In this document: positions 5,473-29,600 of the stretch, one piece after another
Numbering within the stretch: the stretch's first letter is position 1
Layout of the letters: each line of letters begins with the position of its first letter
Source: Schmidtea polychroa
Taxonomy: Eukaryota
NCBI GenBank assembly: GCA_044892525.1
Contig: CM097887.1
Location: forward strand, 43,896,001 to 43,960,000
Direction: 5' to 3'
DNA length: 64,000 nucleotides
Made by a program: the position numbers and the translations under genes
Notes under the pieces: generated by a model
Seen by the model: only the letters and a program-made list of their open reading frames with translations
Told to the model about the DNA's origin: nothing
Databases searched by the model: none

Positions 5473-5512
5473 TCATTATGTTTATTTACAATTGGTTTTA
5501 ATGACCCTTAAT

Positions 5513-6265: not shown

Positions 6266-6382
6266 TGATATAAAATTTAATAGTTTGGGTTACAGTCCCT
6301 TGAATACTTTTACAATACTTTAATTTTTTTTTTGTTTGGGATATACGTCCCGGTTTTTAGTTTTTCATCTTTTCATCCACCC

Positions 6383-7492
6383 TTATACGAAGGTTTCCTC
6401 CTGGCCTACATAACCTTCATCACTATCGACCGCGGGATGTAACTGTATCGCAATAGGGTCGTATGGTAGGTAATATTGGGGGATTTGAGCTCTCAATTCA
6501 TTAATTTCGTCTCTTAGAGCTCGAGTGATGTTCAATTCCTCGTCGAGCAGATAGGTGAGATACCTTGTCTCTTCGTCTTTCGCCTCTATCTGTTTGTCTA
6601 GGGCCTTGATTTTCTCGTCGCCCTTCCATTTTTCAATTTCTATTTCTAAGTTTTTAATATTTTCGGTGTACATTTTCCTTTCGTTTTCTAATTTTCTGTT
6701 TTTTCCCGCTAGGACCATGTTTCTTTGTTCCAGCGATCCTTGTAATCCATTAAGGTCTCTTTTCATCTCTTCTACCTGATTTACTAATTCCACAACCCGT
6801 CCCGCTTGTTGGGTTATCATCTCTTCCATTGCGGCATTCTCGTGCTCTCTTATGTCGCACTTCATTGCCAAATGTCGCTCAAACTCCATAGCCTTTGTTT
6901 GCCAGGTTTGGCTTCGGGCGGCGACCTTTCTCAACCTTTTCAATTCTTCCTTTATTATTAAATTCTCCTCCCATTTACCTTGTTCGCTTTCATATCCGAG
7001 TCTCATGGGCAATTCTTTCATCTCTTTTTTCATTTCTCTGTTTTGTCTTTTCCATTTTCTCGCTTCTGCCACTAAGTGCATCATTTTCCTGTCTTCTATT
7101 TGTTTTTCCGCTTCGCGCTTGGTGTTCTCATCGGTAAGTCTTTTTCTCGCTTCCTGCACTAGCTGCTTTAAGTAGTGGCTGTGTGCTTCTTGGCGGGTAT
7201 TTTCTAGTGACGCCCATTTTGATGCTCTTTTGCATGCTTCTGCTTCCGCTCTTAAGTTGTGTATTAACCATTGGTATTGACTATTCTCATCTTCTCTAGT
7301 TTCTTCGATGTGATTTCGGGTGAGATTAGTTAGTTGGAACATTACTTTGTTCCATTTTTTATTATGTTCTCGGGGAATTTGTGTCTTGTTGACATTGGTT
7401 GGGGCTATCGCAGTTTCGGTTATTTTCTCTTGTGTCATCTCTAAATCATAGACATCGATTAATCTTTTTATTATGAAAAGGAATTTATTCAT
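6383..7492 (-). CDS. Accessory coiled-coil protein (369 aa; likely start at Met 7438)
   Basis: Long charged heptad-like ORF, co-oriented with the element. Confidence 0.72.
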   Translation of the reverse strand: MNKFLFIIKRLIDVYDLEMTQEKITETAIAPTNVNKTQIPREHNKKWNKVMFQLTNLTRNHIEETREDENSQYQWLIHNLRAEAEACKRASKWASLENTRQEAHSHYLKQLVQEARKRLTDENTKREAEKQIEDRKMMHLVAEARKWKRQNREMKKEMKELPMRLGYESEQGKWEENLIIKEELKRLRKVAARSQTWQTKAMEFERHLAMKCDIREHENAAMEEMITQQAGRVVELVNQVEEMKRDLNGLQGSLEQRNMVLAGKNRKLENERKMYTENIKNLEIEIEKWKGDEKIKALDKQIEAKDEETRYLTYLLDEELNITRALRDEINELRAQIPQYYLPYDPIAIQLHPAVDSDEGYVGQEETFV

Positions 7493-7630
7493 TATTTACT
7501 GTTTCTTGGGAAATTTTCGCATCATTTTTGGGTTTTCGTATTTAGGGTTTTCATACTATTATTATATAATATTTTATTGGTTATATACACCGATATATAC
7601 AGATTATTATATACAACATTATTCGATTGG

Positions 7631-9019
7631 TTACTCCGTTCTACCCTTCTCCTCTTTCCTCACGGTCATCTTGATATATATGGTATCATTTCTCGCCATA
7701 TCTTCTACTCTTTGTTGTGAGATGAACGTAGGTGCTCCTGTTGCTGATCCTTCTTCGTTGAGGGGCCTCTGGTAAGCTATTTGATTCCCCGTTGTTTTGA
7801 AGCTTTGCTCATGTATACTTTGGTTGTTCATCAGAGTAATATCGATTTTTGCCTGGAACGGCCATTCTAATATTTCGTCGTATTCTCCTTTACATAACAG
7901 AAAGAAAATCGAAAAGTGCGTATCCAATCCGGTTCCGTCCCCGTTGGGATATACCTTCATTTTCATTTTGTACCCATTTTTCCAAGAATGGAATGTAGGA
8001 CTTGTTATTCTTGTCTCTTCTCCGGTTTTTGCTTTTCGTATTCTTTCTTTTACTCCCGTTATTTTCCATATGTAGGGTGCTGTTGGGGTTATCTCATTTA
8101 GATTTATTTCCCGTATTTTCTGATGTAGCTCCTTGGCCTGATTATTACTGATTTCTGTTCGGTTTATTTGCATCTTTATGTTTGCTCGGGCTTCTTCGAA
8201 CGCTTCCCTTTCTTCTAGTAGTTCTTTGACTAACACTTTCAACGATGTTATCTCTATCTCCATTTGTTTTACTTTCTCTTCGCTTTCTTGTAGCGCAGTC
8301 GACCACATTTCTGCGTGAGTTGAAGCATTTCCTACTAAATGATGTGGTAACTCACCTCGGTGTAGTAGTTTCTGACAACCCCATCTACCTAGTACACATG
8401 TCATTCTTTTCTTTGCGCATTCCCTTAGATGCTGTGCCACCTTCATTATTTCCCCTTGGTTACATCCGTTTGGGCATTCCCCACTGAACTCTGCACATAC
8501 TCTCTCCTCTTGGACATTGTGATGTTTGAGGGTGAGATTTATCCACGTATCTATTTCTCCACAGTATTCACATCTTTCCAATCTCTCTTCACACTGCCTT
8601 TGATGCTCTTTTTCTTCGCTTGCTCGAATGGTTTTATGGCACCTTTCACACTGGCCAATTCTGTACATACATTCTCCCATATGTTGTACTACCTTCCATA
8701 TTACTCCTTTCCATTCGCATGGGGCATTTTTGCATCCCAGGTTGGTGTTTAACATGTCTTTCACTGCGGCTTTATCCTCGTTAGTGTCTTCTAAACTCGA
8801 TATTAGTGTCTCTTTACACACCGGGCACCTCTGTGGTCTATTCTTTATTGCTTCACTGATACATTCTTTACATACTCTGCATCCACATTGCGTTTGGTGA
8901 GGTTCCTTTAACAACTTTTCACATATTCCGCACATAACATGTTTGTGTATTCTGATCGTTGTAGATTTTCGGACTTGCTCGACAATCTCTCTGAACTCTT
9001 CTCTTTGTCGTTTATCCAT
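7631..9019 (-). CDS. TRAF-family protein (RING, TRAF zinc fingers, coiled coil, MATH/TRAF-C), intronless, inside the retroelement
   Basis: CGICEKLLKEPHQTQCGCRVCKEC...CPVC RING; C-x-N-x2-C-x-W-x-G...H-x3-C zinc fingers; YIWKI...SPTFHSWKNGYKMKMKVYPNGDG...HFSIFF...GEYDEILEWPF TRAF-C signature. Paralog cannot be assigned by eye. Confidence 0.93.
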   Translation of the reverse strand: MDKRQREEFREIVEQVRKSTTIRIHKHVMCGICEKLLKEPHQTQCGCRVCKECISEAIKNRPQRCPVCKETLISSLEDTNEDKAAVKDMLNTNLGCKNAPCEWKGVIWKVVQHMGECMYRIGQCERCHKTIRASEEKEHQRQCEERLERCEYCGEIDTWINLTLKHHNVQEERVCAEFSGECPNGCNQGEIMKVAQHLRECAKKRMTCVLGRWGCQKLLHRGELPHHLVGNASTHAEMWSTALQESEEKVKQMEIEITSLKVLVKELLEEREAFEEARANIKMQINRTEISNNQAKELHQKIREINLNEITPTAPYIWKITGVKERIRKAKTGEETRITSPTFHSWKNGYKMKMKVYPNGDGTGLDTHFSIFFLLCKGEYDEILEWPFQAKIDITLMNNQSIHEQSFKTTGNQIAYQRPLNEEGSATGAPTFISQQRVEDMARNDTIYIKMTVRKEEKGRTE

Positions 9020-9104
9020 TCTATAATTATATGTACAAATAGTTCTTATCGATACAGGTTCGATATTTTATTTACAATTATTTACATTTTAAGCTAGGTT
9101 TGGT

Positions 9105-9488
9105 TTAGGGTTCGGAAGAGTCGGCTTCGTGCCCGCTCTCCTCTCTATTCATTAGCCATTCCGACCAGTCTTCTATTTCTGTCTGTTCTGCTTCCTCCCT
9201 CATTCGGTCTATTTCAATTTCCTGTCGACGGCTATATTGGGTTATCCTCTCTATCTCTCTTTGCATTTGTTCGATTTTTAACCTCTGGTCTTCAATTATC
9301 TTCAAATAACTAAATCCTCTGTTCATACTCTCGATCAGGTTTCTGTGCATCGTCAGTCCTTGTTCTTGCAAATTGGACACTAATTGTGCTAATACGGCAC
9401 ATTGTTGCTTCCATAATTCTTCAGTTACTGTATTGTGGTTCATTTCGTTATTTCCTTGATCCATTCCTAATTTATATACACTTTTCAA
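9105..9488 (-). CDS. Accessory small coiled-coil protein (likely ATG start at 9464, MDQGN...)
   Basis: ORF track starts at a TTG; first ATG at 9464; helical, acidic C-terminus. Confidence 0.62.
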   Translation of the reverse strand: MKSVYKLGMDQGNNEMNHNTVTEELWKQQCAVLAQLVSNLQEQGLTMHRNLIESMNRGFSYLKIIEDQRLKIEQMQREIERITQYSRRQEIEIDRMREEAEQTEIEDWSEWLMNREESGHEADSSEP

Positions 9489-9624
9489 CTCTTATGTAAA
9501 TTTAATTTTATTTTATGATTCCCGTTATTGTATAATATTGATACCGCGCTTATATAAAGATATAGTACTGTTATATACATAAGATATACTTACTTTTTAC
9601 AATTATATACAGTCATATTCCTTT

Positions 9625-10635
9625 CTATATACGTGAGTTTGGAGGGCGCTGAACGTTCCAGGCCTCCACCCACTGTCCTTGTTTGATATCACTTGGTCGT
9701 TTCACTCGATGTTGGAAGTTTCTGATTCGGGTCATTTCTAGTTCTCCGCGATGTCGTTTATCTTTAATTATTTTTATTGTTCCCCCCGTTATGATTAGGA
9801 ATGCCCCTGTTATTATTATCCCACTGATCCACATCATCTGCTTCACGCTTATACTCTCTGGTTTTTCCTTGTTTGTTAATGTTGATATCGCTTCTGTACT
9901 TTTCTCGTTTCCTCTTTTGCCATTTCCTTTCATCATTTCCCGTATTCTTGCTATTTCCTCGTTCATACCCTCCTTTGCCATCTTTTGTATTTTTTCCATC
10001 TCTTCCTCCGAAACATAGTTGTCCTGAGCTTCCTCACCAGTTTTCTTGTGCTTTCCTCCTTCGTTCTTTTCGTCGTGGTTTTTTCTTTTCTTTCCTCTTT
10101 TCCCCGGGTATCGTCGGCATTCTCTTTTTGATTCATTCCTCCAGATACAAACCGTGTATTCTTTCGGCGGCTGCTGCTGCGTCACATATTGATGGCATCT
10201 CTCACCTGGTCCTAATCTTGAAATACAGACTTTGTGCTCTTTTCTAGGTTGGATCTGCGTTATTACTACTTCACCACCTTTTCCTAGGTGTACCTCTTTT
10301 CCTTTGACGTTCGTTATTCTCTTCCCGTCTCGATTTCGGTATGCTTCTTGTATTCTTACTTCTGTTATTGGTTCTGTGTCCTCATTTATCAGTACTAGTT
10401 TCTGATACGCTCTAGACATGCATCTTCCTAGTATGCACCTTTCCTTTAAGTCCCATTCTTCCTTTAAATCCCACTGCTGCTCTTGTGCTTGCTTTCTCTT
10501 TTCTTGTTTTAGTTCATCCTCTTTGCTATCTTGATTCTCCGCTTCTTTGGTTTCTTTTATCGTTCTCGTCCCTCCCTGAGCTGTTACTAACTCTATCATG
10601 GTAAGCATAATTATCATTAATATCATATTTGTCTC
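9625..10635 (-). other. C-terminal type I membrane protein module of the polyprotein
   Basis: Signal-like MILMIIMLTMIELVTAQ (about 10580-10635), Cys-containing ectodomain, TM MMWISGIIITGAFLIITGGTI (about 9775-9840), short basic tail. Confidence 0.65.
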
Positions 10636-13600
10636 TATTTCTTTGTTAGTGAAAGGTAGGCATACCCTCTGTTTTCCATTATTCGATTTTTCCTCCTCTT
10701 TGGTCTTGGTTCTCGGGCTGTTTCCCTCTCTTTTCGTATCCGAATCCTTGTTTTCTGGTTTACCCTCCTCCGGTTCTCTTTTCTCTTTATCCTCCTTTCG
10801 GCCTTTTCCGTTATTGTCATCGTGTTTATCTCCCTCGCTGTCATTTAAAATGTCGTCCTCGACATTTATATCGTTCAATAATCTGCGATATGCTGTTAGC
10901 ACTCTGTTTCTTGCTAATTTTGCTTCGAATTCAAACTCTTTTCTACCCGTTGCAGCATGTCTCTTTCTATTCCATTCTTTAACTAACTCTCTCAATTGCA
11001 TACGACGATGTTTCCCAATTCGTTGTTGCTCGTTCTGATTTTGCGTGAATTTTAGGTCTTCTCTATTTAATACTACTAAAATAATTTTCGGCGTCCCCCC
11101 CTTAGTTAGGGTATTCTTTACCATCGCATTTTCTCCGTTTTCGTAGAATTCGTTTACATTTATCGCATATTTATTATTTGGTGGTACTCTCCAGGTTAAT
11201 AATAATTTCATTGCTTCTAGATTTTTCCGTACCGTATTCCATTGAAACTGAGATGTGTTTTTGCACATATTTTCAACTTCTTCTTCTGTCGCATTTTTGC
11301 AAATAAATCTGATCATTTCTAAGTTTGGCTGTATGGTTGCCCAGTCCAAGGTGGAATTTCCTTCATTGGACCTTTCGTCTAGTTTCGATCCTGATTGATG
11401 TAGGATGTGGAGTGTTTTTGGGTGTATTTTCGTTATAGCTGCATACATCATGGCGGTTTCACCTTGTTCATTTTTCGTGTTGGTTTCCTCGCCCATCTCC
11501 CCAAGGATTCTCATGATCGTTATTGCTCTATTCTCTTTTGCAGCTAGTATTGCTTGTTGTAGGGGTGTTCGGGAATCCTTCGTTACCATCGTAAATGCTC
11601 GAGGCAAGAAGGTTTTGATTTTCCCGATATCTAAACCCGTGGTTTGATCTCTTGCGTATGTGTGTACGGCTTTTATTATTTTGGACAATATTATTTCGTC
11701 TGGCAGCTCTAGCATTTCCTCAAAGAACACTTCTTTTGCTTTGCGTATTATTGCCTCTTGATCTATACTCATTGATTTGGTTTCGATGACGTTGTTTGTG
11801 ACCGTTCGGTTCGTTGTTGACTTTGATTCCCTGGATTTCTCATACCTTATTTTCGTTTTCTTTCCGTTTGGATTATTGATTCGTTCCTCTGCTGTAAGTA
11901 TTTGGATAATATCCATGTAATTCTCGCGGATGTTATTCATCGTGTCCATCATATATAACACACTTACTGTTTCCCAATATTTATGTCGTACTTGGTTAGT
12001 AAATTGGAATAGTGATTTTTCGAATGTGTCGATTCGCTTTTTTGTTAACTGTTCGTCTTTGTGATTTGTGAATTTTATCCCTCGTTCTAGTAATTGATTC
12101 GGGATTTCGAATAAATGATGTCCTTTCATAGCTTCTCTCATCAGCGTGTTCTCTCCTCTCGTGAACGCTTCGTTTACGTTGATCATATAATCGTTTCGAA
12201 TTGGATTTCTCCATGTAATTAATATTCCGGTAATTGTCGTCAGTTTTTCTTTGATCGCTGTTAGCAATCCATCATACATGTTTCCGACTTCCCGATTGTC
12301 CTCATATGATAGTAGTTCCATCAATGACGTGAACGCCTCGGTACTTCTCCCTCTGATAGCATGATGTAGAGCGTTTTTCCGCTCGTGGTCTTGTGTAGTT
12401 ATTTTCGATCCGGTATCGAGTAATGCGGTTATAATGTCTTTTGTTTTGCCTCTGTTTGCGGCTATCATTAATGGTGTGTAACCTTGGTTGTTTGTTTGTT
12501 CTGTTGATCGCTTGCAGTCGTGAAATGCTTCTATTGTTTCTAGTATTTGCTCGTTGTTACCTACTTTCATGAGTTTGTGTAATGGTGTGTCTCCGTAATG
12601 ATCTGTTATTGTAAATAATATTGGCCATTGGCTTTTGACTACTCGCAATAATGGGTGTGTCCTTTCTCTATTTGCATAGTTCTCGATCATCGTCAATAAT
12701 CCTCCTAATATTTCGAAATCTAATCGATCTTTTGCCCATCCAGGTATTTTAATTTTTACCTCTTTTACAATCTTTTCCGCTTCTGATGGTTGGATACCTA
12801 ATCGTCCAGTGATCGGTTCTGCGAGTTGTTGCATCATGTTCATTCGGTAGGTTTGCGAACGTGTGGTTAATGTACGGCCTTCTGGTTGACTAGTGGCTGT
12901 TTTTGGAATTGATTTGCATCGTGCCACGTTTACGTATATTGGTCTGGTAAAGGGGTTATTTACCAATTTCACTCTTACATTAGTTTCGCCTACGAATAAG
13001 ATCTCATATGGTCCTTTTCCGTTGCGTTGTAACTTTTTTGTGGTTCCTGGAATTAATTCCGGGGTTTCTATCATTACCCAATCACCTGTTTGGAACGTAT
13101 GTTGCTTCACGTTTTTCTTTCGATCGTGTAAATCTTTATAACTTTCCTGGTAGAACTTGATATTTAATCCCGCAGTTTCCCAAATTTCTTGCATTCTTTC
13201 CTTGAATTTCGTAACATAATCATCGATCTCCATATACTGCGATATCGGTGGTTGGTATTCCAGGTCCATTGGCATATTACATTCTCTTCCGTACATTAAT
13301 TTGAATGGGCTCATTTTCGTTGATGCGTGAATCGACATTCTGTACGCCATAAGACATAGGTTTATATATTCGTCCCAATCTCGTTGGTGACGGTCAACGT
13401 AGTTTGATAACATTTGTATAAGTGTTCCATTAAATCTTTCCGTCATCCCATTGGTTTGAGGGTGGTATGGAGATGTTCTTAGTTTTGCTATTTTGAAGTA
13501 ATTTGTTACTTCGCTCATTATCTCACTCATAAAATTTGTTCCCTGATCGGTTAAGATTTGTTTTGGTGTTCCATATCGGCAACATATCTCTTCTACCAAA

Positions 13601-16600
13601 ATATTTGCGATTGTTTTAGCTTTTTGGTCTGGCATCGCGAATGCTTCTGAGAATTTCGTAAGAAAGTCTGTGATCACCAGAATGTAAACGTTTCCTTTAT
13701 CTGACTCTGGTAGTGGACCAACTACGTCCATGGATATCATTGTCATTGGTTCTATTGGTACTGGCATTGGCGTTAAAGGTGCTTTCCATTTCGATCCCGT
13801 ATTCTTCCTGGTTGCACAAGTTAGACAATTTTTTACCCATTCGGTTACATCTTCCGTTAACGTAGGCCAAAAATATTTCTGTTTCATTCTTGCTAACGTC
13901 TTTTTCGATGACATATGTCCTCCCAATCTCCCATCGTGATATTGCGTTAGTAACTCTTTTCGTCGGTTTTCCGGTATACACATTAATCGTTTTTCCCCAT
14001 CCATTATCAGCAACCAATCTTTCTCTATAATATATCGGTGTCGGTGTTTATCCATATGTTCTTTTAATTTTTGGTCTTTCGCATATACATCTGTCTGTCC
14101 GGTTTTTATATAATCGATAATTTGTTTTAATTCCGCGTCCTCTTGTTGGTCCTTTCGCAATTGACAGAAATCCAAATCTTCCGCTACTATTAAGCATATG
14201 CGTTGCATTTCTGAATCCACCAAATCTGGGAAAATAAATCTTGACATACAATCGGCGTTGGCATTTGCTCTTCCCGCTTTAAATTTTATAAATGGGGAGT
14301 ATTCTTGCAATTGCATGGCCCATCTCATCAGTCTACTGGACGCTTCTTTATGTTGCCCTAACCACACTAATGGTTGATGGTCTGTGGTTATGCATATCTC
14401 ATGTCCCCATAGTAAATATCGGAAGTGTTTGATAGCTTGTATTATAGCCAATGCTTCTCGTTCTGTTACCGAATAGTTCTTTTCGTGCTTTTTGAATGTT
14501 CGACTGTAATACCCGATTACTCTCTCTTTTCCCTCATCGTCCAATTGTCCCAGAATCGCGCCTGCCGCGTACCCGCTTGCATCCGTTGCCAATAGAAATG
14601 GCCTCTTAAAATCTGGGTGTACGAGGATAGGTGCTTCGATTAGTTTGTCTCTCAGCGTTTCAAACGCCTCTTGTTGTTCCTTCCCCCATAAGAACGAAAT
14701 GTCCTTCTTTACTAATTCCTGGATTGGTTTTGCAATTCCTGCATAATTTTTGATAAATTTGCGATAGTATCCGCATAATCCTAGAAATTCCTGAACTTGG
14801 GTGACAGTTTTCGGTGCTGGACATGTTTTTATTTTCTCAATGTTTCTTGGATCTGGCTCCTTTCCTTTAGCTGACACTATGTGTCCTAAAAACGTGACTT
14901 TTTCCTTTGCCCAATCGCATTTTGATGGTTTGAGTTTGAGTTTCCACTGTCTTAATCTAATAAATACGTTTCGGATATCTTCTAGATGTTGTTCAAATGT
15001 CGCTGAATAGATTAGTAAATCATCAATATATACCATACATTGTTTGATTCCATGGGTGACAAAGTTCATACACCGTTGAAATGATGCTGGTGCGTTAGTC
15101 AGTCCAAATGGCATTTTCCTGAATTGATATAGATCTCGTCCCAACGTGAAAGCTGTTTTCTCTTTGTCCTCATCTTTGACTTTAATCTGCCAGTATCCAC
15201 TTTTTAGATCTAAAGAAGTAAAATATGCTGCCCCTTGCAACATCAATAACATCTCATTGATGTCCGGCAATGGGTAGGTATCTCTCTTGGTCACTGCGTT
15301 TAACTTCCGATAATCGATACAGAATCGTTGGGTGCCATCTTTCTTTTTTACCATGACCACTGGGAATTGCCAGGGTGAGCAACTTGGTTCGATTACTTTT
15401 GCGTCTAGCATCTTTTGTACTTCTGTTTCGGCTATTTCTTTCTGCATTTCTGCTAGCTTGTATGGTCTCAATGCAATTGGGGTTTCGTCTATGAGTGGTA
15501 TTGCATGTAAGGTAACATCACATGTACCCAAGTCTAAATCTGAGATGGCGAATATATCTTTATATTCTACCAACAATCGGTGCAATTTTTTCTTTTCATC
15601 ATTCGTCAACAACATACTATCCATTGTCCATAATTCATCATCTTTGATCATCTCGTTGGTCACTTTCGGTAATTCTATGTCCATCATTGGGGTCAATCTT
15701 CCCAATTTTTCGTTCTCATAAATGATTTTGTCTTCCTCTTCGAAATTCGTGATGTTGAGCGGTATCACTCCTTCTTGGTTTATTGTGATTATTTCTCTTG
15801 CGAGTGGTAATTCTCGTCGCTTTTCAAATGACTTGCTTGGTTCAAAGATAACTTCTCCTTCCATACCCGTATCCACTTTTATCTGACAAATCATCTGTGA
15901 TTTTGCTGGTACTATTATTTTTTCTGGACATCTGATGACTGCATTCATTTTGCATATTCTACCGGTTTTGTCTTTTAAACACATGGTTGTTAAGTCAATT
16001 ACGACTTCTTTTAACAATTCTGGCATCAAATCCGTTCCGATTATGCATGGTACGCTAAGTTTTGGTATTACTGCCAAATACGTTTCAATTTCGTTGTCCT
16101 GGTATCTCAATGTAGTCCACCATCTTCCGACCACGTCCACTGTTTCTTTACTACATGCTATGATGTGAATTGTTGTTGATTCGATATCCTTCCAGTGTTT
16201 ACTGGGGATTTGATTAATCGCTATCGCTGATACATTAGCTCCGGTGTCTATCATAGCATTGGTTTCTTTACCATTGATTTGAATCATAACTGTTACTGCT
16301 GGACCTCCAGGTAAACTCATCGCTGCTATTGTTCTTACGTCATCTGCTTGATCTACACTTTTGGTACGTCGTGTTGGCATATAATGCATACCGGGTTGAC
16401 TCGGTAATTGCGGATACATATTTTGTGTCATGGTCAAAGCTGCTTGTGGTCCCACGATATCCGGTGGTATATAGCTTCCATTGGCGATCCAGGTGTTTGT
16501 CTTTTCCTTTTCCCAATATGGTGCCGTTTCCATTGGTTTTTCGTTTGGGTTTCTGTTTGGATAAAGACATTTATCGTTCCCGTTATCATCGTCGTCACTA

Positions 16601-19600
16601 TCGCTGTTAGATGATTGGCTTCTAAATCGGTCCAAGAATTTTGGCTTATTCTTTTTCAATTGTCGTCTTGTTGCTTCATCGTACATTACTTTCCGGAATC
16701 GTCTGCCTACTTCCTCGTCGGTTCCTTTAATCTTTGTTAATATTTTAATCAATCGCTTTATCCGATGAATGTCTTTTGAGTGGCCATGTAATACCATGGT
16801 CTTAGCTAAAAATGGTAAGAAGCCTACTATCATTTTCCAATTAACTTTCTTTTCCCGCTTGTATATATCGAAACAAGCTAACATTTGTGTTAGTATTACT
16901 CTGACTATCTGAATTATGAGTATGATCCCTAATATCCCGGCCATCATTTGTCCAAAAACTAAGAATCTTCCCCACATTGCTTTCATCATGTTTGACGTAG
17001 CTTGTTGAAAATGGTCTGGCGATAATAGCAGCTCGTAATTCGGGCCTGATTGATAGTTTGTGCCCCCAGTTATTGTTACCATATTAGACAAAATGGATTC
17101 TCGTCTGGCTGGGAAGAGTACGTTAAGTCGTGCTGTTTCTAGATCTTCTGGGGAATACATACCACCGTTTGACACGTCTATAGGTTTGAAATCCAGCTCT
17201 GTGGCGAGTTCTATTAATCCAAATTTCTTGGGCTCCTCGGATATGGTTTTTCCCGGTAACATCATCCATTTCCCATCGGGCCTTTCATATAAAGGTCCGT
17301 ATGCATTAGAACAGTTAAAGAGATTTGGGTAGAAACCCACTGGATTCATAATTCTAGTGACTGGTTGGACGAATCGATTTTGTCCTTTATAACGGATTTC
17401 TAATTCATTTGCACATCTCTTTTCGGGTAGTATGGATTTTTCTGGCATTCGTGCATACGTCTTGGTACACTGGTATGTGTACATCACTTCTCCTACCATT
17501 CTACCAAAGTGTCCATCTGGTAATGGGAGTGATGGCATCGTGTTATCTGGGTGCGTTATCGCAATAGCTAGCTTTGTTTTCAATATTTCTTTATTCAATG
17601 AACAATCGTTTTGTATTAGATCGTAATATACTTTTTGCAAGGTCGTTTGTCCGCGATGAAATAGAAAATCCATTTTATTATTTGCATATAAGTATAGTTT
17701 TACGTCCTCCGTTGCTATCTTTCCCACTGCTCTATCGATTATTTGTCTCGACATATAGATACCTGCGTAATTGGTTTTATATACTATACTGTCACATTTG
17801 GTGGTTTCTTTCTCTTTGATAAATCTCATACCTAGATCTGGATCGTCTGTGATTAATGCTGTTGGTGTCTTCTGCGTTGAAAGTCTCTTTTCTCTGGGAG
17901 ATGGTGGCATTGGTTTTCCATTTCGCATTCTCACTCTGTCGTTTCCATCCTCGTCGTTCTCATTCTCATATATTTCTCCTTTTACTTCATTGAACAAAGC
18001 ACTTTTTAACAGTTGGAGTCGGCATTTTTGGGTATTAGCTTCATAGATTATAGTTGATACTCCTGTCCTGCATACGTTTTCTGTAGCTCTACACGTTGGG
18101 TTGGTCTTCATTTGGTAATTATTTGCGTCAAATTGCGCTTCGTATTCTTTTAATTCGACCGTGTAAGACTCGATCACTACAACTCCCGATATTACCTCGC
18201 CTCGGATCGTATACGTACCTCCGTTACATGACCCATCTGATGATTTTACTTTTCCGGATACGTAAACACTTTCGGTTTTAATCATTCCAGTTTGTCCGTG
18301 AATTGTCACTCCGTTATGCATTTTTAGCGCTCCGGTTCTAAATAGCTCTTTACAATCCTCTCGTTGTATTGATACGATTTCTTTATCCAGACCGGGTAGT
18401 ATAAGAGTCGAATACGAATATTGTCCACAGTAATATGCGAGTACCTTTTTTGATACTACGCATTCCCTTGCTTGCGTTCTGATGAAATCTGATTCTTGAT
18501 ATACATGGTAAGTAACTTTTGTTCTCACGATGTCCAATTTGTTGGGTGAGGCTTGTCTGCATTCTTCTATGTCTCTCAATGAGTATTTATCTCTCATTAT
18601 CATGTTATCACAATCGTAGATGGTGAAACCTGTTGCTCCACTTGTGCACAACATCCATATCATCATAGTCATCATTAACGAATTTATTGATGCTTTTCTG
18701 CTTGCGGGATCTTTCATCGGTAGTTCCCATTCTAGTTCATTTAACAGTTTTTTCAATCTAACTTGCATCGACCTTTCTTGCTCATTTTTCCGTGGCGCTT
18801 GTATCAGTCTTTTCCATCCTCCTGCACGAATAATGTGTGGTTCAATAGTATTCTCTATGATTGAAACGGTCATTTCTACATGATTTGCAAACTGTTTATT
18901 TGGTATTTTCCTCGCAGCTAGTCCCATCAAATTATACATCAAATAAGTGATTACCACTAGGTGATGCTCGTCATCATTTGCATTTGTCGTGAGCTGCTCA
19001 ATCACTCTCTTTGTTTCGTCCCAATCCGTTTTGGTGGTTTTCGTTTTCTCTTTGATTAACTTTGGGATTATCCCCGAAATGGTGTGCCATAATTGTCTAG
19101 CTTCCGTACTGGCTACTTTCCGTTGCCACAAACGTCTAAGTTGTGGGTTTGTTATTATTAACATATCTTTTAACAATTCTCGTATCCATTTTTCTCCTCT
19201 TTCGATCGTTGGTTGGGCTTCCTTTAGATCCCATACTATTTTATCCAATTTTTCTAATCGAACTTGCCCTTGTTCTTGCTTTAATTGTTCTTTGGTTTTG
19301 AACTCAGACTTTTCTCCTTGTTTCTTGGGTCTTCCTTTTGCCCGTTTTTCCATCATCGTTCCGGCTTCTCTGGTATTTTCGTAATTCGGATTTCTTTCGT
19401 TATCCGTTCTGGGTAATGAGCTATCGTTATTTCTTAGCCACTCATTCCATTCGTCTATTATTTTGTCGGTTTGACTTTCTGGTGTTACTTTCGTTGGTTC
19501 TCTTTGCTTCTGGAATTGTTCATCCGTTTCGGTTTCCGTAGTATTGTCGATGATTTCTTTGATGTTCAGTTTCGTTGGTTGTTGATAACTCGTTGATGGC

Positions 19601-22600
19601 TGGTTATTAGTCCACATTTCGGCTCCTGTCGGCCATCTCACTAATAGCGGTGATCTTTCTCCTGGTTCATCGTCACTATCTTCCAGGATTATCTCTTCAA
19701 CTTCTTCAGTTTCATTAGATTTACTTGGTGCTTTGTTCGGACTTGGAGTACTCAAACTGCCTTTTGTTGGTTTAATAATTTTACTTTTCCTTTTTAACGG
19801 TTTTCCCAACGTTTCTGCCATTGTTAATACATTTGTCTCTTCCAATCTCATGGGGGTTATCCCGACGTCTGCATTATCGTCTAGTGATTTTCCGAACAGT
19901 TGCAGATGGAATGGAGTTTCATATGCTAATTCCTTTTTTAATTCTCTAATTTTTGTTGTTGGATGCACCTCTAGTTCCTCGATGCTCTTGTCTGGATACT
20001 TGATTCGGATGTGATACCTCTCCTGGGTGTCTTGTGCCCATTCCTGATTTCTCCATTTTCGAATAATTTGTTCTAGCTGTTCTGGATACCATTCATTATA
20101 TTGCCGGTATTCCTCTATTGCCTTTGCCATTCCTCTCAGATTGTGGATGTCCTCTGATGTCTTTAAGATGATGTTAGCCAACGCTACTACTTGGCGTCTT
20201 TGATTTTTCGCTCCCATTGCTAAGATATCGCCTAATTGTTTATATCTTTCTTTCTCTTCTCGTTCTCTTGCTTCCGTCGCTTCCTCGCCGTCCATATCAG
20301 CATATTCACGTTCCTTTTTCCTCATTGCATGAATATGTCTCGCTTCATTTTCGCTTTCTGATGTGACATCCGTCTCGCCTTCGTCATCTGATGTCTGTTC
20401 CCTTGCTTCCTCTTCATATTTTGGAGGTTCCTCTTCTTCTTCCTCCGATTCACTTTCTGTCTCACCAATGTCTGTTTCCACGAAGGTTCCTTTCCGGATT
20501 TCCCATTCCTTACTTTCTGCATTCCACACTCTTTCCCATGGGGTTCGTCTGCAGGATCTGGTGCTTAATTTCGTGATTTTTCCTTGTAGTTCTTTTTCTT
20601 TTAACCATTGTTGGTGGATTTTAATTATTTCCGTAGATTTTTGATATAACGTTTTCATCCGGTCTCGTATTTCTTTTTGATAGGTTACATCTCTTGTTCG
20701 AAATTCATCCATTGGTACTATCCTGATTATCTGGTGATTGTCCCACATACCCATTTCGCTTAACGAGGTGTCGTCCTCCGCTCGTAATATTATCTTATCG
20801 TACATCATGACTACATCATCCACCATACCATCACTACTTTCGCTACGTACCTTTTCCGTTATCTCTTGGTTTATTTTTGATACCAAGTCATCTACTGTAC
20901 TCTGATTGCTCATTTTTATTCGTCGTTTTTCTTCGTTCGGTAACCATATGGTTATTTCCAACCTCTGTGGCTGGGTTTCTTTTAACCTTCCATATTTGTG
21001 GATCAAATTTATGGTTCTCCAATCACTCATTCGGAGCATTTCTGTATCTCGCAACCGGCTCATTAGTTCGTACATGGCTGGGGCTCGTCTGGTGATGAGT
21101 AAATCCCAGTTGTCTTCTACTTGTTCTTGAATTTGTTTGATCAGCTTATCCAGGTTTCGTCTCAGAGTACATTGTTTTATTTGTTCTAATTTCAATTTGA
21201 TATTAAAATCATATTCTGCCTTGGCATCTTTAGCCCAATCGTAAAGGTTGGCTGGTTGTTTTTCTTTATGCAACTTCAGTATTTGCGTTTCTCCTGGCCA
21301 TATTAGTGCATCTACTAAGTGCATATCTGGTTTGATCTGTTCTCCTTGGTATTGATACAGATATTCTTTCTTTCTCGAACTTCCCAAATGCTCTCGTATC
21401 CAATCGAAAAGTTCGTCGGTGACTGTATTTTTTATCCACATTCTTTCAAGTCCTCTACTCGTTCCGATTTTTATTACATACCGCGTGGTATCGGCCTGCT
21501 TCATTTTTTCCATATAATTTTTTATAATTGATTTTTCCTCGTTTGGTATTAAATCTTTCTCGTTTCTTTCCAATTTCATCACTTTTTGCACGAATCGCCT
21601 GAATGGTATTACGTCAATGAACTCTTGGTTCCTCACTACTACTGGGAGTATTTCCGCTACTTGTTTTATCGCTTCCTCCTTCCCTTTTCTCAACTTTATT
21701 TCGATATCCTCGTCTTCACTTTCGCTGGTTATCTCGCTTTCGCCTTCTTCCTCTTTGATTTCCCCTTTTGGAGGTTCGCTTATTTCATTCAGCTGTAGTA
21801 TTTCTCCACCCAAACTACTTACATAGTCTTCTTCCTCGTCTGACGATGCTACATCTTTTGTCCTTTTCATCATATTGATTTGCAAGTTTCTCATCCTTGG
21901 TACTCTCTTTAGTTTCTTTCTTTCGAATATCGTTGTTTCTTCTGATTCTAATTCCTGTAGCATTTGGTGGTTTAGTTGACTGGTTTGTTCCTTGCTCTTG
22001 TTATTTTCATCTTCTGTCTCGGCTTTCGCTTTATTATGTTCTTTTTCGATTTTATCTTTTATCTTTTTCCAGAATATTTTCTGAATTCTCTGGTTTCCTT
22101 TTAAAATCGTGGTTGAATTCTCTGTTTTCATTTCCGTTGTTATTTCTTTTACCTTTTCTGGTTCAGTCATGGGTACTACCCTTGGGCTTTTCCCGTAATT
22201 GTAGCAATACTGGCTCTTCATGTCTTTTACTAACTTCATCATATTTATTCGCAATGGTTGTTCTTGTCGTTGTTGGTTGCGTTCTTGTTTTATCCTCTCT
22301 TCCTCGGCCTGTAGCCTTTGCCATTCTTGTACATGTTGATGCACTTCATAATTGTTGAGATTTTCGGTACTCCTCATCATACGTATATTCTGGGTTTGTT
22401 GTGGTGCTGATTCTTGTCTTGGTCTCATCATTTGTTGCATCATCTGTTTCATCTGCGAAATTTCCTGCATAACGTTCATTTGTTTTCCTTCGTTAGGGTT
22501 ACTTTGTCGTTGCGGATTCGCTATATAATTATTATTTCGCTGTGGTGGTCGTTGTTGTTGGCCCCTTTCTCGGCAATCTCTGGAGATGTGACCTGGCTGA

Positions 22601-23478
22601 CCACAGTTAAAACAGCCTCGCAATTGGCATACATTTTCGGTATGTCCACGCCGTCCGCAACGATTACAATTTGAATTTCTATAACAATCTCTGTCCCAGT
22701 GTCCTGGTTTACCGCATGTTCGGCACTGCTTGTTATCGTTCATATTTCGCCGATTATTGAAATTGTTCTCATTATTCGGGTTGTTACGATTACCATTATT
22801 CCCGTTTGATCGTCCTTGTGGTGGTTTGAAAATTTGGTGCGCTCCTGGTATAAATTGATTCATTTTCGGTTCTTGATTGTTGTTATCTCCGTTATCCGCT
22901 TTCGCTATTGCTGTCGCTATCCTTCCCTCCTCTTGCATAATATTCATTTGAGCTGGAAGGTGGAGCTCGCATCTTGTAGCCCAATCTATGGCTTCCTCTA
23001 ATGTTTTGCACATTTGACAACCTACTGAGGCTCTTACTTCTTCTCGGCGTAATCCCTCTATGAAATAACCGATCAGATTTTCTTCGGGTAATTTTCCATT
23101 CATTGCTTTCTTCGCTAATCTCCGCAATTCACTGGCATATAATGTTATCGATTCGTTTGCTCTTTGTTTCCTATTTGCTAGTTCGCCCAACGCCTGGTTG
23201 ATTGGCTTACTGGCTCCGAAGGTTTTCTTCAGGAATGTTTTAATATCTTCCCACTTTTCTAATTTCGTGTCTCTCTCTTTAGCTTCTAAATATACCTCTA
23301 ATGCACTATCGCACAAAAACAACGGCATCCTTTTACTAATTGCTTCGGGTGTCCATCCACACACAGTGATATAAACTTCAAAATTAGTTATGAACGATGC
23401 TAGCTTGTTTGCGTTTCCGTTGAACGGTTCTCCTCTGAACTTCTCTTTATACTCGTCGGTTTTTACGACATTCGTCAT
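9625..23478 (-). CDS. 4,617-aa Gag-accessory-Env-Pol-accessory polyprotein
   Basis: Single uninterrupted ORF containing CA-like region, CCHC knuckles, DTG protease, YIDD RT, TDAS RNase H and HHCC/DDE integrase, plus the extra domains listed separately. Confidence 0.97.
   Translation of the reverse strand: [4617 protein letters not shown]
11085..12625 (-). other. Two ankyrin-repeat modules downstream of integrase
   Basis: [30 protein letters not shown]; then [29 protein letters not shown]. Confidence 0.85.
12910..13945 (-). other. Integrase (HHCC, DDE core, GPY/F C-terminus)
   Basis: HDGRLGGH...CLTC; [38 protein letters not shown]. No chromodomain seen. Confidence 0.96.
14240..15480 (-). 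other. Reverse transcriptase and RNase H
   Basis: [96 protein letters not shown]. Confidence 0.97.
15960..16310 (-). other. Retropepsin aspartic protease
   Basis: [12 protein letters not shown] ... IIGTDLM. Confidence 0.95.
16780..18690 (-). other. Envelope-like class III fusion glycoprotein (chuvirus G / herpes gB-like) with internal signal peptide and TM anchor
   Basis: Signal [18 protein letters not shown] then FTIYDCD...YSLRDIEEC...YYCGQYSY...DGSCNGG...C-x6-C Cys pattern typical of chuvirus-type G; TM [25 protein letters not shown] at about 16880-16970. Confidence 0.8.
18796..19263 (-). other. Bcl-2-like domain (BH2-like motif clear, BH1 degenerate)
   Basis: All-helical segment ending [15 protein letters not shown] (BH2 consensus WIxxxGGWxxF); [22 protein letters not shown] sits at BH1 spacing but lacks NWGR. 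Confidence 0.55.
19820..21485 (-). other. Three ubiquitin-like domains (about 21270-21485, 20710-20963, 19820-20016)
   Basis: Beta-grasp pattern, e.g. [30 protein letters not shown]...[14 protein letters not shown] and [30 protein letters not shown]...[11 protein letters not shown], which parallel ubiquitin [30 protein letters not shown]...LIFAGKQLEDGRTLSDYNI. The first copy is the weakest. Confidence 0.65.
22570..23478 (-). other. Gag: capsid-like region plus three CCHC zinc knuckles
   Basis: [18 protein letters not shown] (major-homology-like); [42 protein letters not shown] at about 22570-22730. Confidence 0.9.
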
Positions 23479-24785
23479 GATTGGTGTTCTAGGTTCGTCT
23501 GTTTCTTTTAAATTGTCTAACGATGTGACTAAACTTTGGGCTGATAATTCCTCGGTTGACGTTGCTAAACTATTAGTGATATCGGACAGACTTTCTCTAC
23601 TTCGAGATCGACTAGGGGTATATCCGAGATTTTCTTGGTCAAATATGGGTACTTGATTGGTTCTTCTGGATCCTTGTGATATTCCTCTTTGATGTTTAAT
23701 GGATCGTCCTCTTTTGAGTTGTTGTAATTCGTCTCCTGAAAATAATACGTCTCCTGGCTTACTAGAAGATCTAAGATTGGGTTTATCCGTGATTCCTTTC
23801 TTACGCTTCTTGGTAATTAGCGGCTATTGAATTGGACGCGTTCGGTTCTGATTGTGTTTCCTTCGATAAATATTCTGTATGAATCTGCTACTGAGATCCT
23901 GAGGAGATTTACTAATCCTTGGCAGATGGCTGCTAATACTTCTTCCGTTCTGGAGTCTTCCGGTTGCTGTGTCTCTCGGTGCGGGTTCTGAATGGATTTA
24001 TCCTTGGTTGATTGTCGATTTCTTCGAATTCCTTTTGTGCAGGTTCTGGATTGTCTTGGTTGGCTGGATTGGCTTGATATCTAAAATGAAAAAATGATCT
24101 CGTGTTGCATTTGCTTACACGACTTCATCATTCTTTCTACAACATTCAAAAACAGACGCCTTTTAGGTTTCTGTTTGTGCTTCCCCTATCTTTTTGTGAA
24201 ATCCTTTCTGCGGGTTATAATATCCCATCAGCCCGTATTTTCCGTCGATTTTAAATTATCTATATGGGGTAGTAACAATTATCTATAAAGTCGTAATAAT
24301 TATCTATTCGTTATCAATTATAGTAAAAATAGGTCGTTGTCAGTCTCTGCTTATTACCCCCCTTCGTTTTCTTATTCCTTTGCGCTGTTGTCGCTGTTTT
24401 ACTTTTCGTATTTACTATTATCCCACTCGGTTCTACTCTGGAACCGGTAAAAATACATTTTCCCGGTTTACCCAAAAAAAAATTCCGTAGAGTTTCTCTA
24501 CTTCACTGGGATCCCTTTAATTAGTTAGTTACTTTCCTCTTTACTCATTATCATCATTTCATCTATTCTTTATTTTCTATTATCTCTTTAATTCGTTTCC
24601 TTCTTCCCTTTCCTTTTTCATTATAATCTTATTTTCTTTTCCACGAGCTCGTTTATTTCCTCTCTAAACTCAAATTTTCAAAATTACATTCAATTTGTTC
24701 TAGCTAGCTTTAATATTCCATATCACTAGTAATTTAAATATTATCTCATTGTAGCTTAACTGCTATCTCTCGCTTTTCTAGGCCT

Positions 24786-25264
24786 TTACGACTGGCTGGC
24801 ACTATTCAACAGCTCAATCTTCTTCCTTCTGATCGGTTAGACTATTCAACAACTCGATCTTACGACTGGCTGGCATTATTCAACAGCTCAATCTTCCTCC
24901 TTCCTGATCGGTTGGACTTTTCACAACTCGACCTTACGACTGGCTGGCACTATTCAACAGCTCAATCTTCTTCCTTCTGATCGGTTGGACTATTCAACAA
25001 CTCGATCTTACGACTGGCTGGCACTATTCAACAGCTCAATCTTCCTCCTTCCTGATCGGTTGGACTTTTCACAACTCGACCTTACGACTGGCTGGCACTA
25101 TTCAACAGCTCAATCTTCTTCCTTCTGATCGGTTGGACTTTTCACAACTCGACCTTACGACTGGCTGGCACTATTCAACAGCTCAATCTTCTTCCTTCTG
25201 ATCGGTTGGACTATTCAACAACTCGATCTTACGACTGGCTGGCACTATTCAACAGCTCAATCTT
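24786..25264. repeat. Tandem array of about 6.5 copies of a 73-74 bp unit in the 5' leader
   Basis: ttacgactggctggc starts at 24786, 24860, 24934, 25008, 25082, 25155, 25229; no unique spacers. Confidence 0.95.
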
Positions 25265-25843
25265 CAATATTCCTCGCTCTGCATGCTTCTATTTCTCTTT
25301 TCTTCTTTTACTCTAGTTTACCATTTTCTCTGTCTACTTTTAATTTGTCGACTTAATCTTTACCGCTTGGGAGTGTTTCCCCTTTCCCCCCTTGCTCAAA
25401 ACGCACGACGATCGCGATGATCCATTTCTACCTTGGCATGGTGATCAGTCATGTCGCAAAAACTTCTCATCATATGCGATGGTACCCCGCCCTACGCTTC
25501 TTACTTGGGTTGATCAGTTATCCCCTCCCAACGGGTTCTTGCAATAAGACGTACCGCCCGAAGGTGGCTCGGTTTGTACCCCTGCAGTCTATATTGGGAC
25601 TAATTCCACGTTATTCAACCCTCTCTTCATTTGATTCCAAAAAAAAAAAGGAATAAAACAAAACAAACACGCAAATATTCATTCGTCATGCAAATTTTAT
25701 TAGTCCTAATCATCAAAACTTTTTAAAGACGAATTTATTTATCATAAACATAAAGATTGAATCATTAACAGTACGTGTTACTTCAACAATTTCATGCATT
25801 CTTGTTCAAACATCGTATACTTGCTGTTACATCGCCGGCCGTT

Positions 25844-26329
25844 TCATTCGCCATAATAGACCATATGGGTCTCTTTTATTTCATATTTGCACATCGTGCA
25901 TCTTTTTAGGTCTTTTACACACTCTTCACAGTGACTGAGGTGTCCACACGGCAAGAATAATACGCGAATAGGACGGAGTTTGCAGGCTATACAAGTTCGT
26001 AATTGGTTAACTTTTTCCTGTATTTTTTGTTCGATTGCATCTGGTATTGTATTTAGTGAGTCTTTTAGACGCTGATAATCTAGATTTAATGTTGGGTGGT
26101 TCAATCTCTCTTGATACCACTGATATACGGTTTCGGGGTTTATTTTTCCATCTGGGCGACTTAGGCCTGTGGCTAATATCATATGATTAGGTACGACTGG
26201 TGTTTGTCCGATTGCTTGCAGTAATATCGCGTTGATTTTTTCTCTTTTATGCGTCAGTGTTGTTAGGGAGTCGTTTTCTATATCGATAAACTTGAGCAGT
26301 TGTTGCATTTGGTTCGCGAATTCTGTCAT
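25844..26329 (-). CDS. 161-aa protein with C-terminal IAP/XIAP-type C3HC4 RING, no BIR domain
   Basis: CIACKLRPIRVLFLPCGHLSHCEECVKDLKRCTMCKYEI at the extreme C-terminus, preceded by helix QKIQEKVNQLRT. Confidence 0.85.
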   Translation of the reverse strand: MTEFANQMQQLLKFIDIENDSLTTLTHKREKINAILLQAIGQTPVVPNHMILATGLSRPDGKINPETVYQWYQERLNHPTLNLDYQRLKDSLNTIPDAIEQKIQEKVNQLRTCIACKLRPIRVLFLPCGHLSHCEECVKDLKRCTMCKYEIKETHMVYYGE

Positions 26330-26664: not shown

Positions 26665-26671
26665 AAAATCA

Positions 26672-29600
26672 TGTTGGGGTTACACCTCGGCTGACCATTC
26701 TACCATGTTGGCGGGTCTAAGGGTTGATTGTCCATCTCGAATAAAAGGTGCCACCGATTTGTCAACCTGGAGTGAAACCCCACATAACTTTCTTCCAACA
26801 TAGTGCCCGTGAATCACTTCACGTTGGTACTGCACTATGCAGGCGAGACGCCAGCAAGCAGGTGAGCTTCTGCCTTAAAACTACTCCTTGCTGAGGCCTC
26901 GACTTCCCATTCACGACTGCCGATAGAAGGGCTTACGTCCATTTCCTTACACAACCACCTATCAGGATTCGCTGAATGCAAATTGGGAAATTCTCACTAG
27001 ATCTTGCGGGTTCTCTACTCAACCCACTTAATTCAAGTCTAATTATTCATGAACGAAAACGTGTAAGACAACAAGATTTATTAATTTCAACGTTATGACA
27101 CAAGGATTCAGCTGTACTCTTTACTAATGTTTGTCGAAAGAAGAGAAAACATCATAATCAACATAGATCGGATCCTTGTTCCTCATCCTGACCGCCACTG
27201 GGGTTTTATTGTTTCTCCCATTCAGTGTCGGCGAATAATTCGTCGAGGTTGAAAAACTCGGAAGCGTTCTCTTCCCACCTTACGCCAGCGGCTGATATGA
27301 TTCGCGCTGAGGGTCCCGTTGTTAGGTCGATGGACACGTGAGAGTTGCCACCGTTGGTTGAGTCCTCTATTGATGGGATGTTTGGCTTTGCAGTAGCGCG
27401 CTCGCGCTGTCTCTTCTTGCGCTCTGCACGAGAGAGTTGTTTGCGCTTGGGTTTGCTTGAAGATGCCACTTGCAGAAGGGTGACTGATACAGATGGACTA
27501 GCAGTGGGGGGCTTACTGGTACCCGTGATGACAACATCTGGACGCTTGGGGGACCATTCGGTTTCGACGCAGTCTCGGCACGGTCTCTTGAACGGTGGAG
27601 ATGGATTCGAGGAAAGGTTGTGATGAGGCGGAAAGATGTCATCGGCCTCTCGGATGGGAATCTGCACGATTTTTCGGGTTGTAGCCGCCTGCACGTAAAC
27701 CTTATGCAGTGCCTCGGATTGTTCTCTGATTAGACTTCTTTGGGCACGGCTCTCAGATATAAGCGCGTCCCGGCAATGCTCGCTACGATCGAGCTTCTTT
27801 TGGATCTCTTTCATCCGAGCGGGACTAAACCATGTCCCTTCCAGCTCGTCTATCTTCCTCTTGTAACGTCCAATCTGAGTTTGTAGGTCCTTTATCACCG
27901 TATTTTTATCCGCGCACGAGAAGCACGGCCGTAATGCTGATTTAGTGGTTGGTAGCATGCTTGCTATAAATAATACTAATGAAATGGAGAACATACGATT
28001 TTAGAATAAATTAGATACGACCCGCGTCCATTCGTGGATACTTGACCGTCGAAAAGGAGGAAAACTTATTCTACAATCCGGTTTTACTACGGATCTTAGT
28101 TGTTAAAACAGTTTATTTAACCAAATGCCATCGGTTTGACGCATGTTATTAACTTTGACTATCTATTGATCTAACTGTATGCATGAGGGACGTAATAATT
28201 GATAGGGTGTAAATATAATATTGGTGAAACAATATAATAATGCTTTAGTAGAGGGACATTATAGTATGCGACCAAACCTTGCTATATGTTATCTATTTTA
28301 ATTTATTAAAAACAAATTACTATCGCTCTCAACATATTTCTGATTCGAAATTTGTTATTGGAAGTGCACTTTTAATTCGGTAGTGAATGTGATTATCTAT
28401 GTTGTCTACCATTGGTCTGAAAATATGTGATGAGTTTACATCAGCCATTACTTTAACACCCTCATGGAAAATCCCATCGGTCATAACATATATCCAAATT
28501 TACGGATACTGCTGTCGACTGGTTGATTACATTATCGACCTATTGTGAATGTCACGTGTCGCGACTACTATGTATGCTAGTCTGATATTCTGTGCTCTCA
28601 CCACATGGATTCGTGTATGGCTACTATCTTATCTCACTCACTTGGTGTATGCCATTTTCACGGTGATTTTATCGATCCTGCTGTCGTATGATTTTCTCTG
28701 CACAGTGATTTATTTGAGTTATGATCTATGCTACCGCCAGTTCTCATCGCGGAGTTTTACCCTTATCAACTTGTGTGAATGATCACCATCGTTTGGAAAT
28801 TTATTGGATCTTTTCAGTGATCGTCGAGGGAATAATTCTACCAAATACTGGAGCATATTACTACTCTCGTCATTCTACTCGGATTTTCCTATTCAGATGT
28901 AATGCCGTCTCGATGAAACCTGTCCTTTTCTCTCAGGTTCAATAATTTGGATATATACAGTGATGACCTGGCTCTTATTGTAGAAATAAATGTTATTAAT
29001 TAAATTTGGTGATATTTTACCTGTTTATAATTTTTGAAATAACTAAGTCTATAAAACTTTCTGATTATAATATTAGAGAAGTTTTCGTAGAATCTCGCAT
29101 TTTATAGTTTCGAGTTAGTTAAAGTTTTTAGAATACTTTCGTAACCTGACATACAATCTGGACAGGTTAGATGACATTGGGTCTATGATAATGGAATTTC
29201 ATACGAATTTAGTTCTACTGAGTCCGGCAAATAGACGTTGTCGCAATTAATTTGATAAAACCATGTTTCCAGATGAAGCGTACTATGAGATGTTGTTATT
29301 TTTGACGAAGTTCACTAAATCGTGGTCTGGATCTCTTTTTTCAATAGGGGTAAGACTTACGAAAACGACTTGACGAAAGAAGAATGCGACGCCCTCAATC
29401 ACTGTGCAAATCCTTGAAAATCCCTTCATTCGTATGACTATCTTTGTGAAATCATTGTCTACCGGTTATTTTTTTTATCCATACCCCATTGTGATAATTT
29501 AGTCGCATCTTCAGCGATAGGACCCGTGAAGAAGCCTTCACATTTCGGCCCAATCTAGCTGCGCGATTGAAATACTCCATGTCCACCGGCTGAGCTCCCG

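Follow-up and report, generated by a model that had tools for sequence, protein, structure and literature searches.

Burro elements were described as carrying RING, MATH/TRAF, BIR, ankyrin, BCL2-like, and Ubi2/SUMO-like domains together with an in-frame env, and apoptosis and ubiquitination domains were so prominent among them as to suggest meddling with these host systems (PMC6431247, section 7). According to Lee et al. 2026, as cited in PMC13465017, the BIR-RING region (B-IAP) of Burro1 protects stem cells from caspase-mediated apoptosis, and BURRO1 is presented in PMC8532177 as PIWI-controlled and expressed upon de-repression. A complete long terminal repeat (LTR) element, 29,783 bp in length, was found at positions 732-30514 of a 64,000-nucleotide stretch from Schmidtea polychroa (assembly GCA_044892525.1, contig CM097887.1, positions 43,896,001 to 43,960,000; the whole stretch is hereafter called the window); it lay on the minus strand, as did all its features given below unless stated otherwise. 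It was an intact, young, Burro-type giant Ty3/gypsy env-bearing retroelement of planarians, and its cargo modules were held by purifying selection between sister lineages. The element type and the apoptosis/ubiquitin idea were already known (PMC6431247), and since system and hypothesis had both been published, the finding was a rediscovery. The additions beyond the literature searched were per-module selection values (dN/dS, the ratio of nonsynonymous to synonymous substitution rates), BIR absence in the window family, cassette exchange, a signal-peptide anchor proposal, and confirmation of the Bcl-2 fold; Grohme 2018 and Lee 2026, which lay outside that literature, may hold selection tests and a family assignment.

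Burro/GYPSM1 (Jurka 2007; Grohme 2018; via PMC6431247) and the window element shared a length of about 30 kb, multi-kb LTRs, a tandem repeat, and one giant open reading frame (ORF) in which env stood in frame between gag and pol, and which encoded Gag with three zinc knuckles, Ubl (ubiquitin-like)/SUMO-like and BCL2-like domains before env, protease (PR), reverse transcriptase (RT), RNase H, and integrase (IN), ankyrins, and MATH/TRAF, but the window element differed from the published description in having MATH outside the polyprotein, a full TRAF as a separate downstream ORF, and no BIR. The two Burro1-specific features, namely the polyprotein MATH and the BIR-RING gene, were absent from the window and both present in another family of the same genome (family D), which fitted the Burro1 description. 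Family D measured 34 kb and had a 4,791-codon frame and the same gene order as the window element, plus two extras (a MATH in frame with the polyprotein and a BIR-RING ORF of 392 aa standing apart from it); compared to it, the window family lacked these two and had an additional second ankyrin block. Among the named Burro families, the window element most likely belonged to one other than Burro1 (Burro-2, -3, or -4), as matched by published description; the literature search for Burro-2/3/4 returned PMC6431247 and PMC13465017 as its only relevant matches.

The 5′ LTR (26672..30514; 3,843 bp, TG...CA ends) and the 3′ LTR (732..4574; 3,843 bp) had 0 mismatches between them, and copies of AAGG, a 4-bp target-site duplication, bordered the element (728-731 and 30515-30518), as three other full elements were likewise bordered by 4-bp duplications; LTRs without a mismatch plus a 4-bp duplication therefore indicated a very recent insertion. 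A single 4,732-codon frame (9625..23823; first plausible Gag Met at 23478) encoded, in order, Gag, three zinc knuckles, Ubl1 to Ubl3, Bcl-2, Env, PR, RT, RNase H, IN, ankyrins, and a C-terminal membrane protein, and the catalytic motifs of PR, RT, RNase H, and IN were all present. The preliminary description of this DNA had listed a full TRAF (RING E3), an IAP-type RING, three ubiquitin-like domains, a Bcl-2-like domain, and ankyrin repeats over 7631..26329, and this span was exact, 7631 being the TRAF stop and 26329 the start codon of the RING ORF.

The TRAF was a stand-alone intronless ORF of 462 aa (7631..9019). Its RING, coiled coil, and MATH were confirmed by Pfam (PF21355, E 2e-27; PF00097, E 1e-4) and by PDB (best matches TRAF3/TRAF2, E ~1e-27), its E3 activity being putative; RING-zinc-finger structures of TRAF6/TRAF5 matched as well, the zf-TRAF Pfam was silent in the window copy, and RING, zinc fingers, coiled coil, and MATH followed one another in the order that defines the TRAF family. 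The canonical His of its RING was replaced by Cys, and the same replacement was seen in other TRAFs of the genome and in family D. PMC6109357 describes an expanded planarian TRAF family, with which the window TRAF had the full TRAF architecture and the Cys-for-His RING in common, but from whose members it differed in being element-borne. Of the 20 genomic TRAF loci sampled, none exceeded 31% identity to it over its length, and a word-index homologue search gave one match. A MATH tree was built from 25 rows, of which 5 were element-borne and 20 genomic (the sister TRAFs were left out, their ORF crossing a stretch boundary); in it, element TRAFs grouped with long single-frame genomic TRAFs, apart from a short-frame cluster (99/100); the inner order of this tree was unresolved, and a single origin of element TRAFs was neither shown nor rejected (p-AU 0.52).

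The upstream RING ORF (25844..26329; 161 aa) consisted of a helical N-terminus and a C-terminal RING (PF13920, E 4e-11), whose best PDB matches were the RINGs of cIAP2 (E 2.5e-10), cIAP1, ML-IAP, and XIAP, down to 9e-7, and whose zinc ligands and near-terminal Tyr were invariant in 5/5 aligned RINGs. The IAP type of the RING was thereby borne out (C3HC4, cIAP/XIAP nearest), though no BIR domain was found anywhere in the window element by Pfam scan and direct check. The ORF had the C-terminal C3HC4 RING in common with the IAP-family RING ligases cIAP1/2 and XIAP but differed from them in lacking BIR, UBA, and CARD, and for that reason its product was not an IAP by definition.

The Bcl-2-fold domain (18781..19215) kept the BH2 GGW and had lost the BH1 NWGR. 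As a single sequence it gave PF00452 at E 0.03, 0 matches to PDB by phmmer, and no usable match in the ESM Atlas, and a word-index homologue search with the Ubl-Bcl-2 region gave 0 matches. A 10-sequence profile found Bcl-xL (E 5e-5), and in a model of the Bcl-2/Ubl region built from an 11-row alignment (pLDDT ~50-76 in the Bcl-2 region) the top six VIA-align rows were all Bcl-2-family chains (Z 11.5-13.3), with A179L at Z 13.3 and rmsd 2.9 Å over 138 residues, so that the claimed Bcl-2-like domain held up in both profile and fold searches. A single-sequence fold of aa 742-1708 was unusable (pLDDT 37). The viral Bcl-2 proteins A179L of African swine fever virus, BHRF1 of Epstein-Barr virus, Bcl-2 of Kaposi's sarcoma-associated herpesvirus, and CNP058 of canarypox virus had the fold predicted for the window domain (Z 11.1-13.3, rmsd 2.6-2.9 Å), while the latter was only 8-17% identical to them, had lost NWGR, and was embedded in a retroelement polyprotein ahead of Env.

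The three ubiquitin-like domains fared unequally. Ubl3 (19801..20022) had a ubiquitin (beta-grasp) fold, its model giving VIA-align Z 11.3 with rmsd 1.7 Å over 70 residues and Foldseek probability 1.0, and the domain alone gave PF00240 at E 0.02. Ubl1 (21259..21486; aa 780-855) and Ubl2 (20704..20961; aa 955-1040) were not confirmed alone, with no ubiquitin Pfam match, no relevant PDB match, and pLDDT 30-60; the ESM Atlas placed them at 0.89 to ubiquitin/SUMO-like clusters, hhalign against the other Ubls gave E 0.03 and 0.003, respectively, at low probability (control 0.46), and on these matches both are probable ubiquitin-like domains. No GG occurred between aa 673 and 1667, hence a terminal diglycine was present in none of Ubl1 to Ubl3. 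Foldseek against a viral library returned ubiquitin-like matches only, none below E 1e-4. Ubl3 was preceded by a five-helix domain of unassigned fold (20032..20361; aa 1155-1264; pLDDT ~50-78), absent from the modules listed in the preliminary description, alignable in families B, C, and D, and with dN/dS of 0.04-0.07. The ankyrin repeats formed two confirmed blocks, block 1 at 12124..12621 (PF12796, E 1e-17) and block 2 at 11119..11577 (PF12796, E 5e-9), which were ~24% identical to each other; family D had one block.

For the sequence comparison, four sister-lineage or long-frame copies, six further copies, three BIR-bearing loci, and a single locus from each of two further env families (B and C) were fetched. 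The sister lineage had the same gene order as the window element, with identities of 87% (polyprotein), 67% (TRAF), and 41% (RING ORF). Pairwise dN/dS was obtained from codon counts of the Nei-Gojobori type with a transition weight of 2 and Jukes-Cantor correction, contrasting the window with 2/4 of the sister-lineage or long-frame copies plus 6/6 of the further copies; the sister-lineage values came from 5 copies, amounted largely to one contrast, and lay at dS ~1. In this sister contrast, dN/dS was 0.026-0.034 for Bcl-2, 0.04-0.07 for Ubl1, 0.012-0.025 for Ubl2, 0.07-0.09 for Ubl3, 0.06-0.08 for the ankyrins (block 1, 0.07-0.08), 0.05-0.06 for Env, 0.03 for PR-IN, 0.13-0.15 for TRAF, and 0.26-0.34 for the RING ORF (near saturation). 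TRAF stayed at 0.13-0.18 over all contrasts, and in two mosaic copies with lower, unsaturated dS, TRAF had 0.17 and the RING ORF 0.16-0.19. A copy-versus-copy comparison within family D, which was an independent contrast, gave 0.05 for Bcl-2, 0.16 for TRAF, 0.14 for RING, 0.21 for BIR-RING, and 0.38 for MATH. Comparison across copies, proposed earlier as a check on the cargo, thus found modules that were neither decayed nor neutral. That the modules are inert hitchhikers, kept only because a long frame must stay open, would agree with the polyprotein linkers also being low (dN/dS 0.05-0.15), but TRAF and RING were separate ORFs and nevertheless had 0.13-0.19 in several contrasts, and Bcl-2 and Ubl2 were constrained like integrase; the selection data largely refuted this explanation, which is very improbable.

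The reading that we favour, and consider probable by a modest degree, is that the captured TRAF, RING, Ubl, Bcl-2-fold, and ankyrin modules, kept by selection, serve as accessory proteins with which the element manipulates its host and so preserves the life of the cell it replicates in. The element protease may cut the polyprotein at a recurring motif (see below), and host signal peptidase would cut before Env, releasing a piece of ~570 aa composed of the helical domain, Ubl3, and Bcl-2, with the Env signal stretch at its end; the Env signal peptide, if retained as a C-terminal anchor, would place the Bcl-2 fold on the endoplasmic reticulum (ER) face, like cellular tail-anchored Bcl-2 proteins. 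The TRAF, standing alone, and the RING without BIR could work as E3 ligases or as decoys for the TRAF/IAP complexes of the host, the Ubls would be docking domains and not conjugated tags, and the target pathway would more likely be caspase/stress-kinase signalling than NF-kB. The cell-survival role put forward in the preliminary description is plausible, and such a role was reported for the Burro1 BIR-RING (via PMC13465017), but the window family had no BIR protein and its Bcl-2 no NWGR.

Several observations weighed against this cell-survival reading: (i) a predicted-disordered linker (aa 1341-1524) had dN/dS of 0.05-0.06, which was no higher than the values of Ubl1, Ubl3, and the ankyrins and left the constraint on these three not above the polyprotein background; (ii) Bcl-2 of one close copy had dN/dS of 0.31, on 6.5 versus 6.5 changes; (iii) the N-terminal part of the RING ORF had 0.54-0.63, with an interval up to 1.07, and was indistinguishable from neutral; (iv) BH3 binding by the Bcl-2 domain is doubtful because the BH1 NWGR was absent; (v) the sole Burro effector reported as tested, BIR-RING, was missing from the window family; (vi) the polyprotein cleavage sites were placed by motif only; and (vii) in the window and sister copies, the signal stretch fell under the hydropathy (transmembrane, TM) threshold used.

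The same folds might instead have been repurposed for the particle cycle, the Ubls and the Bcl-2 bundle forming a matrix-like membrane-anchored scaffold that ties Gag to Env and the RINGs serving budding or polyprotein turnover. Such a scaffold would fit the position of Ubl plus Bcl-2, in frame between Gag and Env in 4/4 families examined, the retention of Ubl-Bcl-2 in families B and C (two Ubls plus Bcl-2 before Env), where the fetched stretches showed no ankyrin, TRAF, or RING cargo, a Bcl-2 constraint equal to that of the enzymes, and the lost NWGR. TRAF and IAP-type RINGs, however, are signalling modules for which we know of no particle role, and the Burro1 IAP was reported to act on caspase-mediated death (via PMC13465017); the scaffold, although the main rival to the survival reading, is unlikely.

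Where the Bcl-2 domain ended, it was followed by the Env signal-like stretch alone, a signal-peptide-like hydrophobic stretch before Env (18625..18690) that would be the tail anchor of the Bcl-2 piece. Cellular Bcl-2 proteins have a tail anchor at the equivalent place after the domain. In 9/9 sequences (four from outside the genome), 48-68 aa separated GGW from mature Env and included a hydrophobic stretch, and on account of this conserved spacing the Env signal peptide probably serves as a Bcl-2 membrane anchor. Searched with a profile, 1.84 billion representatives yielded 6 matches at E <=0.001, 3/6 of them Bcl-2-like and running into the same Env family. We offer, as a possible and still doubtful extension, that Burro-like elements share a Ubl-Bcl-2-Env unit of ancient origin, whose Env signal peptide would also be the Bcl-2 tail anchor, so that every family, BIR-less ones included, would gain a second anti-apoptotic route, one-to-one with Env at the ER, with TRAF/RING cassettes swapped on top. 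The anchor idea was not found in the literature searched, and Grohme 2018 and Lee 2026 may already contain it.

In a further proposal of the preliminary description, the cargo would shut down innate TNF/NF-kB signalling and the ankyrins would mimic IkB. A full TRAF was present, as such a function would have it, and among poxviruses, Bcl-2-fold proteins that do not bind BH3 are blockers of innate signalling. In PMC13563047, planarian TRAF homologues are TBK1-dependent wound/immune genes, but the same source gives S. mediterranea no clear NF-kB homologue and seven divergent RHD genes. The window ankyrin cargo contained no DSGxxS degron (viral IkB mimics need not carry one), and IkB was not among the best 60 of 99 ankyrin PDB matches; nothing in these checks marked the ankyrins as IkB mimics, and silencing of TNF/NF-kB found no specific support; this explanation is improbable. 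Genome searches for RHD and TNF gave 0 matches each, were uninformative as their controls were silent too, and for RHD the blank was probably a false negative because seven RHD genes are reported in S. mediterranea (PMC13563047).

The window family was abundant in the genome: 54/150 best RT matches lay in a 4,732-codon frame and 7/150 in a 4,811-codon frame (hand count), and TRAF DNA had 366 genomic candidates, of which the top 40 reached >=99%. In family D, identity to the window was 28% for the upstream BIR-less RING ORF and 29% for the downstream TRAF. The mosaic copies had, relative to the window, polyprotein dS of 0.08-0.10, TRAF dS of 0.32, and RING ORF dS of 0.87-0.96, and low polyprotein dS with high TRAF/RING dS pointed to cassette exchange between lineages. 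Families B and C were smaller env-bearing elements (a 3,334-codon frame in one, a broken frame in the other), and their Bcl-2 was more canonical (PF00452, E 0.002 and 9e-6). A further BIR-less IAP-type RING ORF (9278-9823 of its own stretch, minus strand) adjoined a protein-primed DNA polymerase B fragment (Polinton-like); over 68 aa it shared 37% identity with the RING of the window, and a cargo pool shared among mobile elements is possible. First-look searches of the whole genome gave 1,551 MATH, 909 Bcl-2, and 309 BIR candidates. Contigs of two runs, guessed to be RNA, covered 30/30 and 15/30 bins, mostly at 90-99% likeness, and were not used as evidence.

The remaining features of the element were as follows. 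PR, a spacer domain, RT, RNase H, and integrase occupied 13264..16311, the spacer domain between PR and RT being conserved (dN/dS 0.04) and without a Pfam match at the place where Burro elements have a dUTPase-like domain, and the Env fusion glycoprotein (PF24664, E 6e-70; TM at aa 2293-2311) occupied 16891..18624. A short Met-rich motif recurred at domain borders (polyprotein aa 293, 449, 480, 526, 649, 1164, 2499, and 3661), with three occurrences in family D and none in family B with the pattern used. A second signal-peptide-like stretch plus TM near the polyprotein end (10576-10638 and 9769-9846) suggested a further membrane protein, and similar pairs were seen near the polyprotein end in the sister, D, and B families. 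Downstream lay a 128-codon ORF (9105-9491) and three 3′ accessory ORFs (4804..7495; 370, 258, and 222 codons; two coiled-coil and one with TM), the latter with homologues in the sister and D families and dN/dS of 0.05-0.29 for the two tested. Each LTR contained a sense ORF of 264 codons (1266-2060 and 27206-28000), which had no protein-family match, was 37% identical over 252 aa to the LTR ORF of the sister family, and had a weak counterpart in family D. The leader harbored a 74-bp tandem array of 6.5 copies (24786..25265; strand not assigned), and a primer-binding-site-like stretch, which we take to resemble tRNA-Pro, was located at 26640-26671, a few bases off the 5′ LTR end. The insertion target was a short host repeat of ~91-bp period (548-731 and 30515-30600), rich in TGACTCA words that presumably resemble the AP-1 site. 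A separate 684-codon gypsy PR-RT-RNase H frame lay outside the element at 36140-38194 (plus strand).

A very abundant and young Burro family without BIR-RING provides a natural contrast for Burro-host mutualism, which may be confined to Burro1 or may depend on the Bcl-2/TRAF/RING core that the families share. The signal-peptide anchor, if true, would be a single hydrophobic segment with a double task. When planarian gene families are counted, the hundreds of TRAF, BIR, and Bcl-2 copies borne by elements matter, and since many scored MATH, Bcl-2, and BIR matches lay in element-length or repeated frames, planarian family counts may be inflated.

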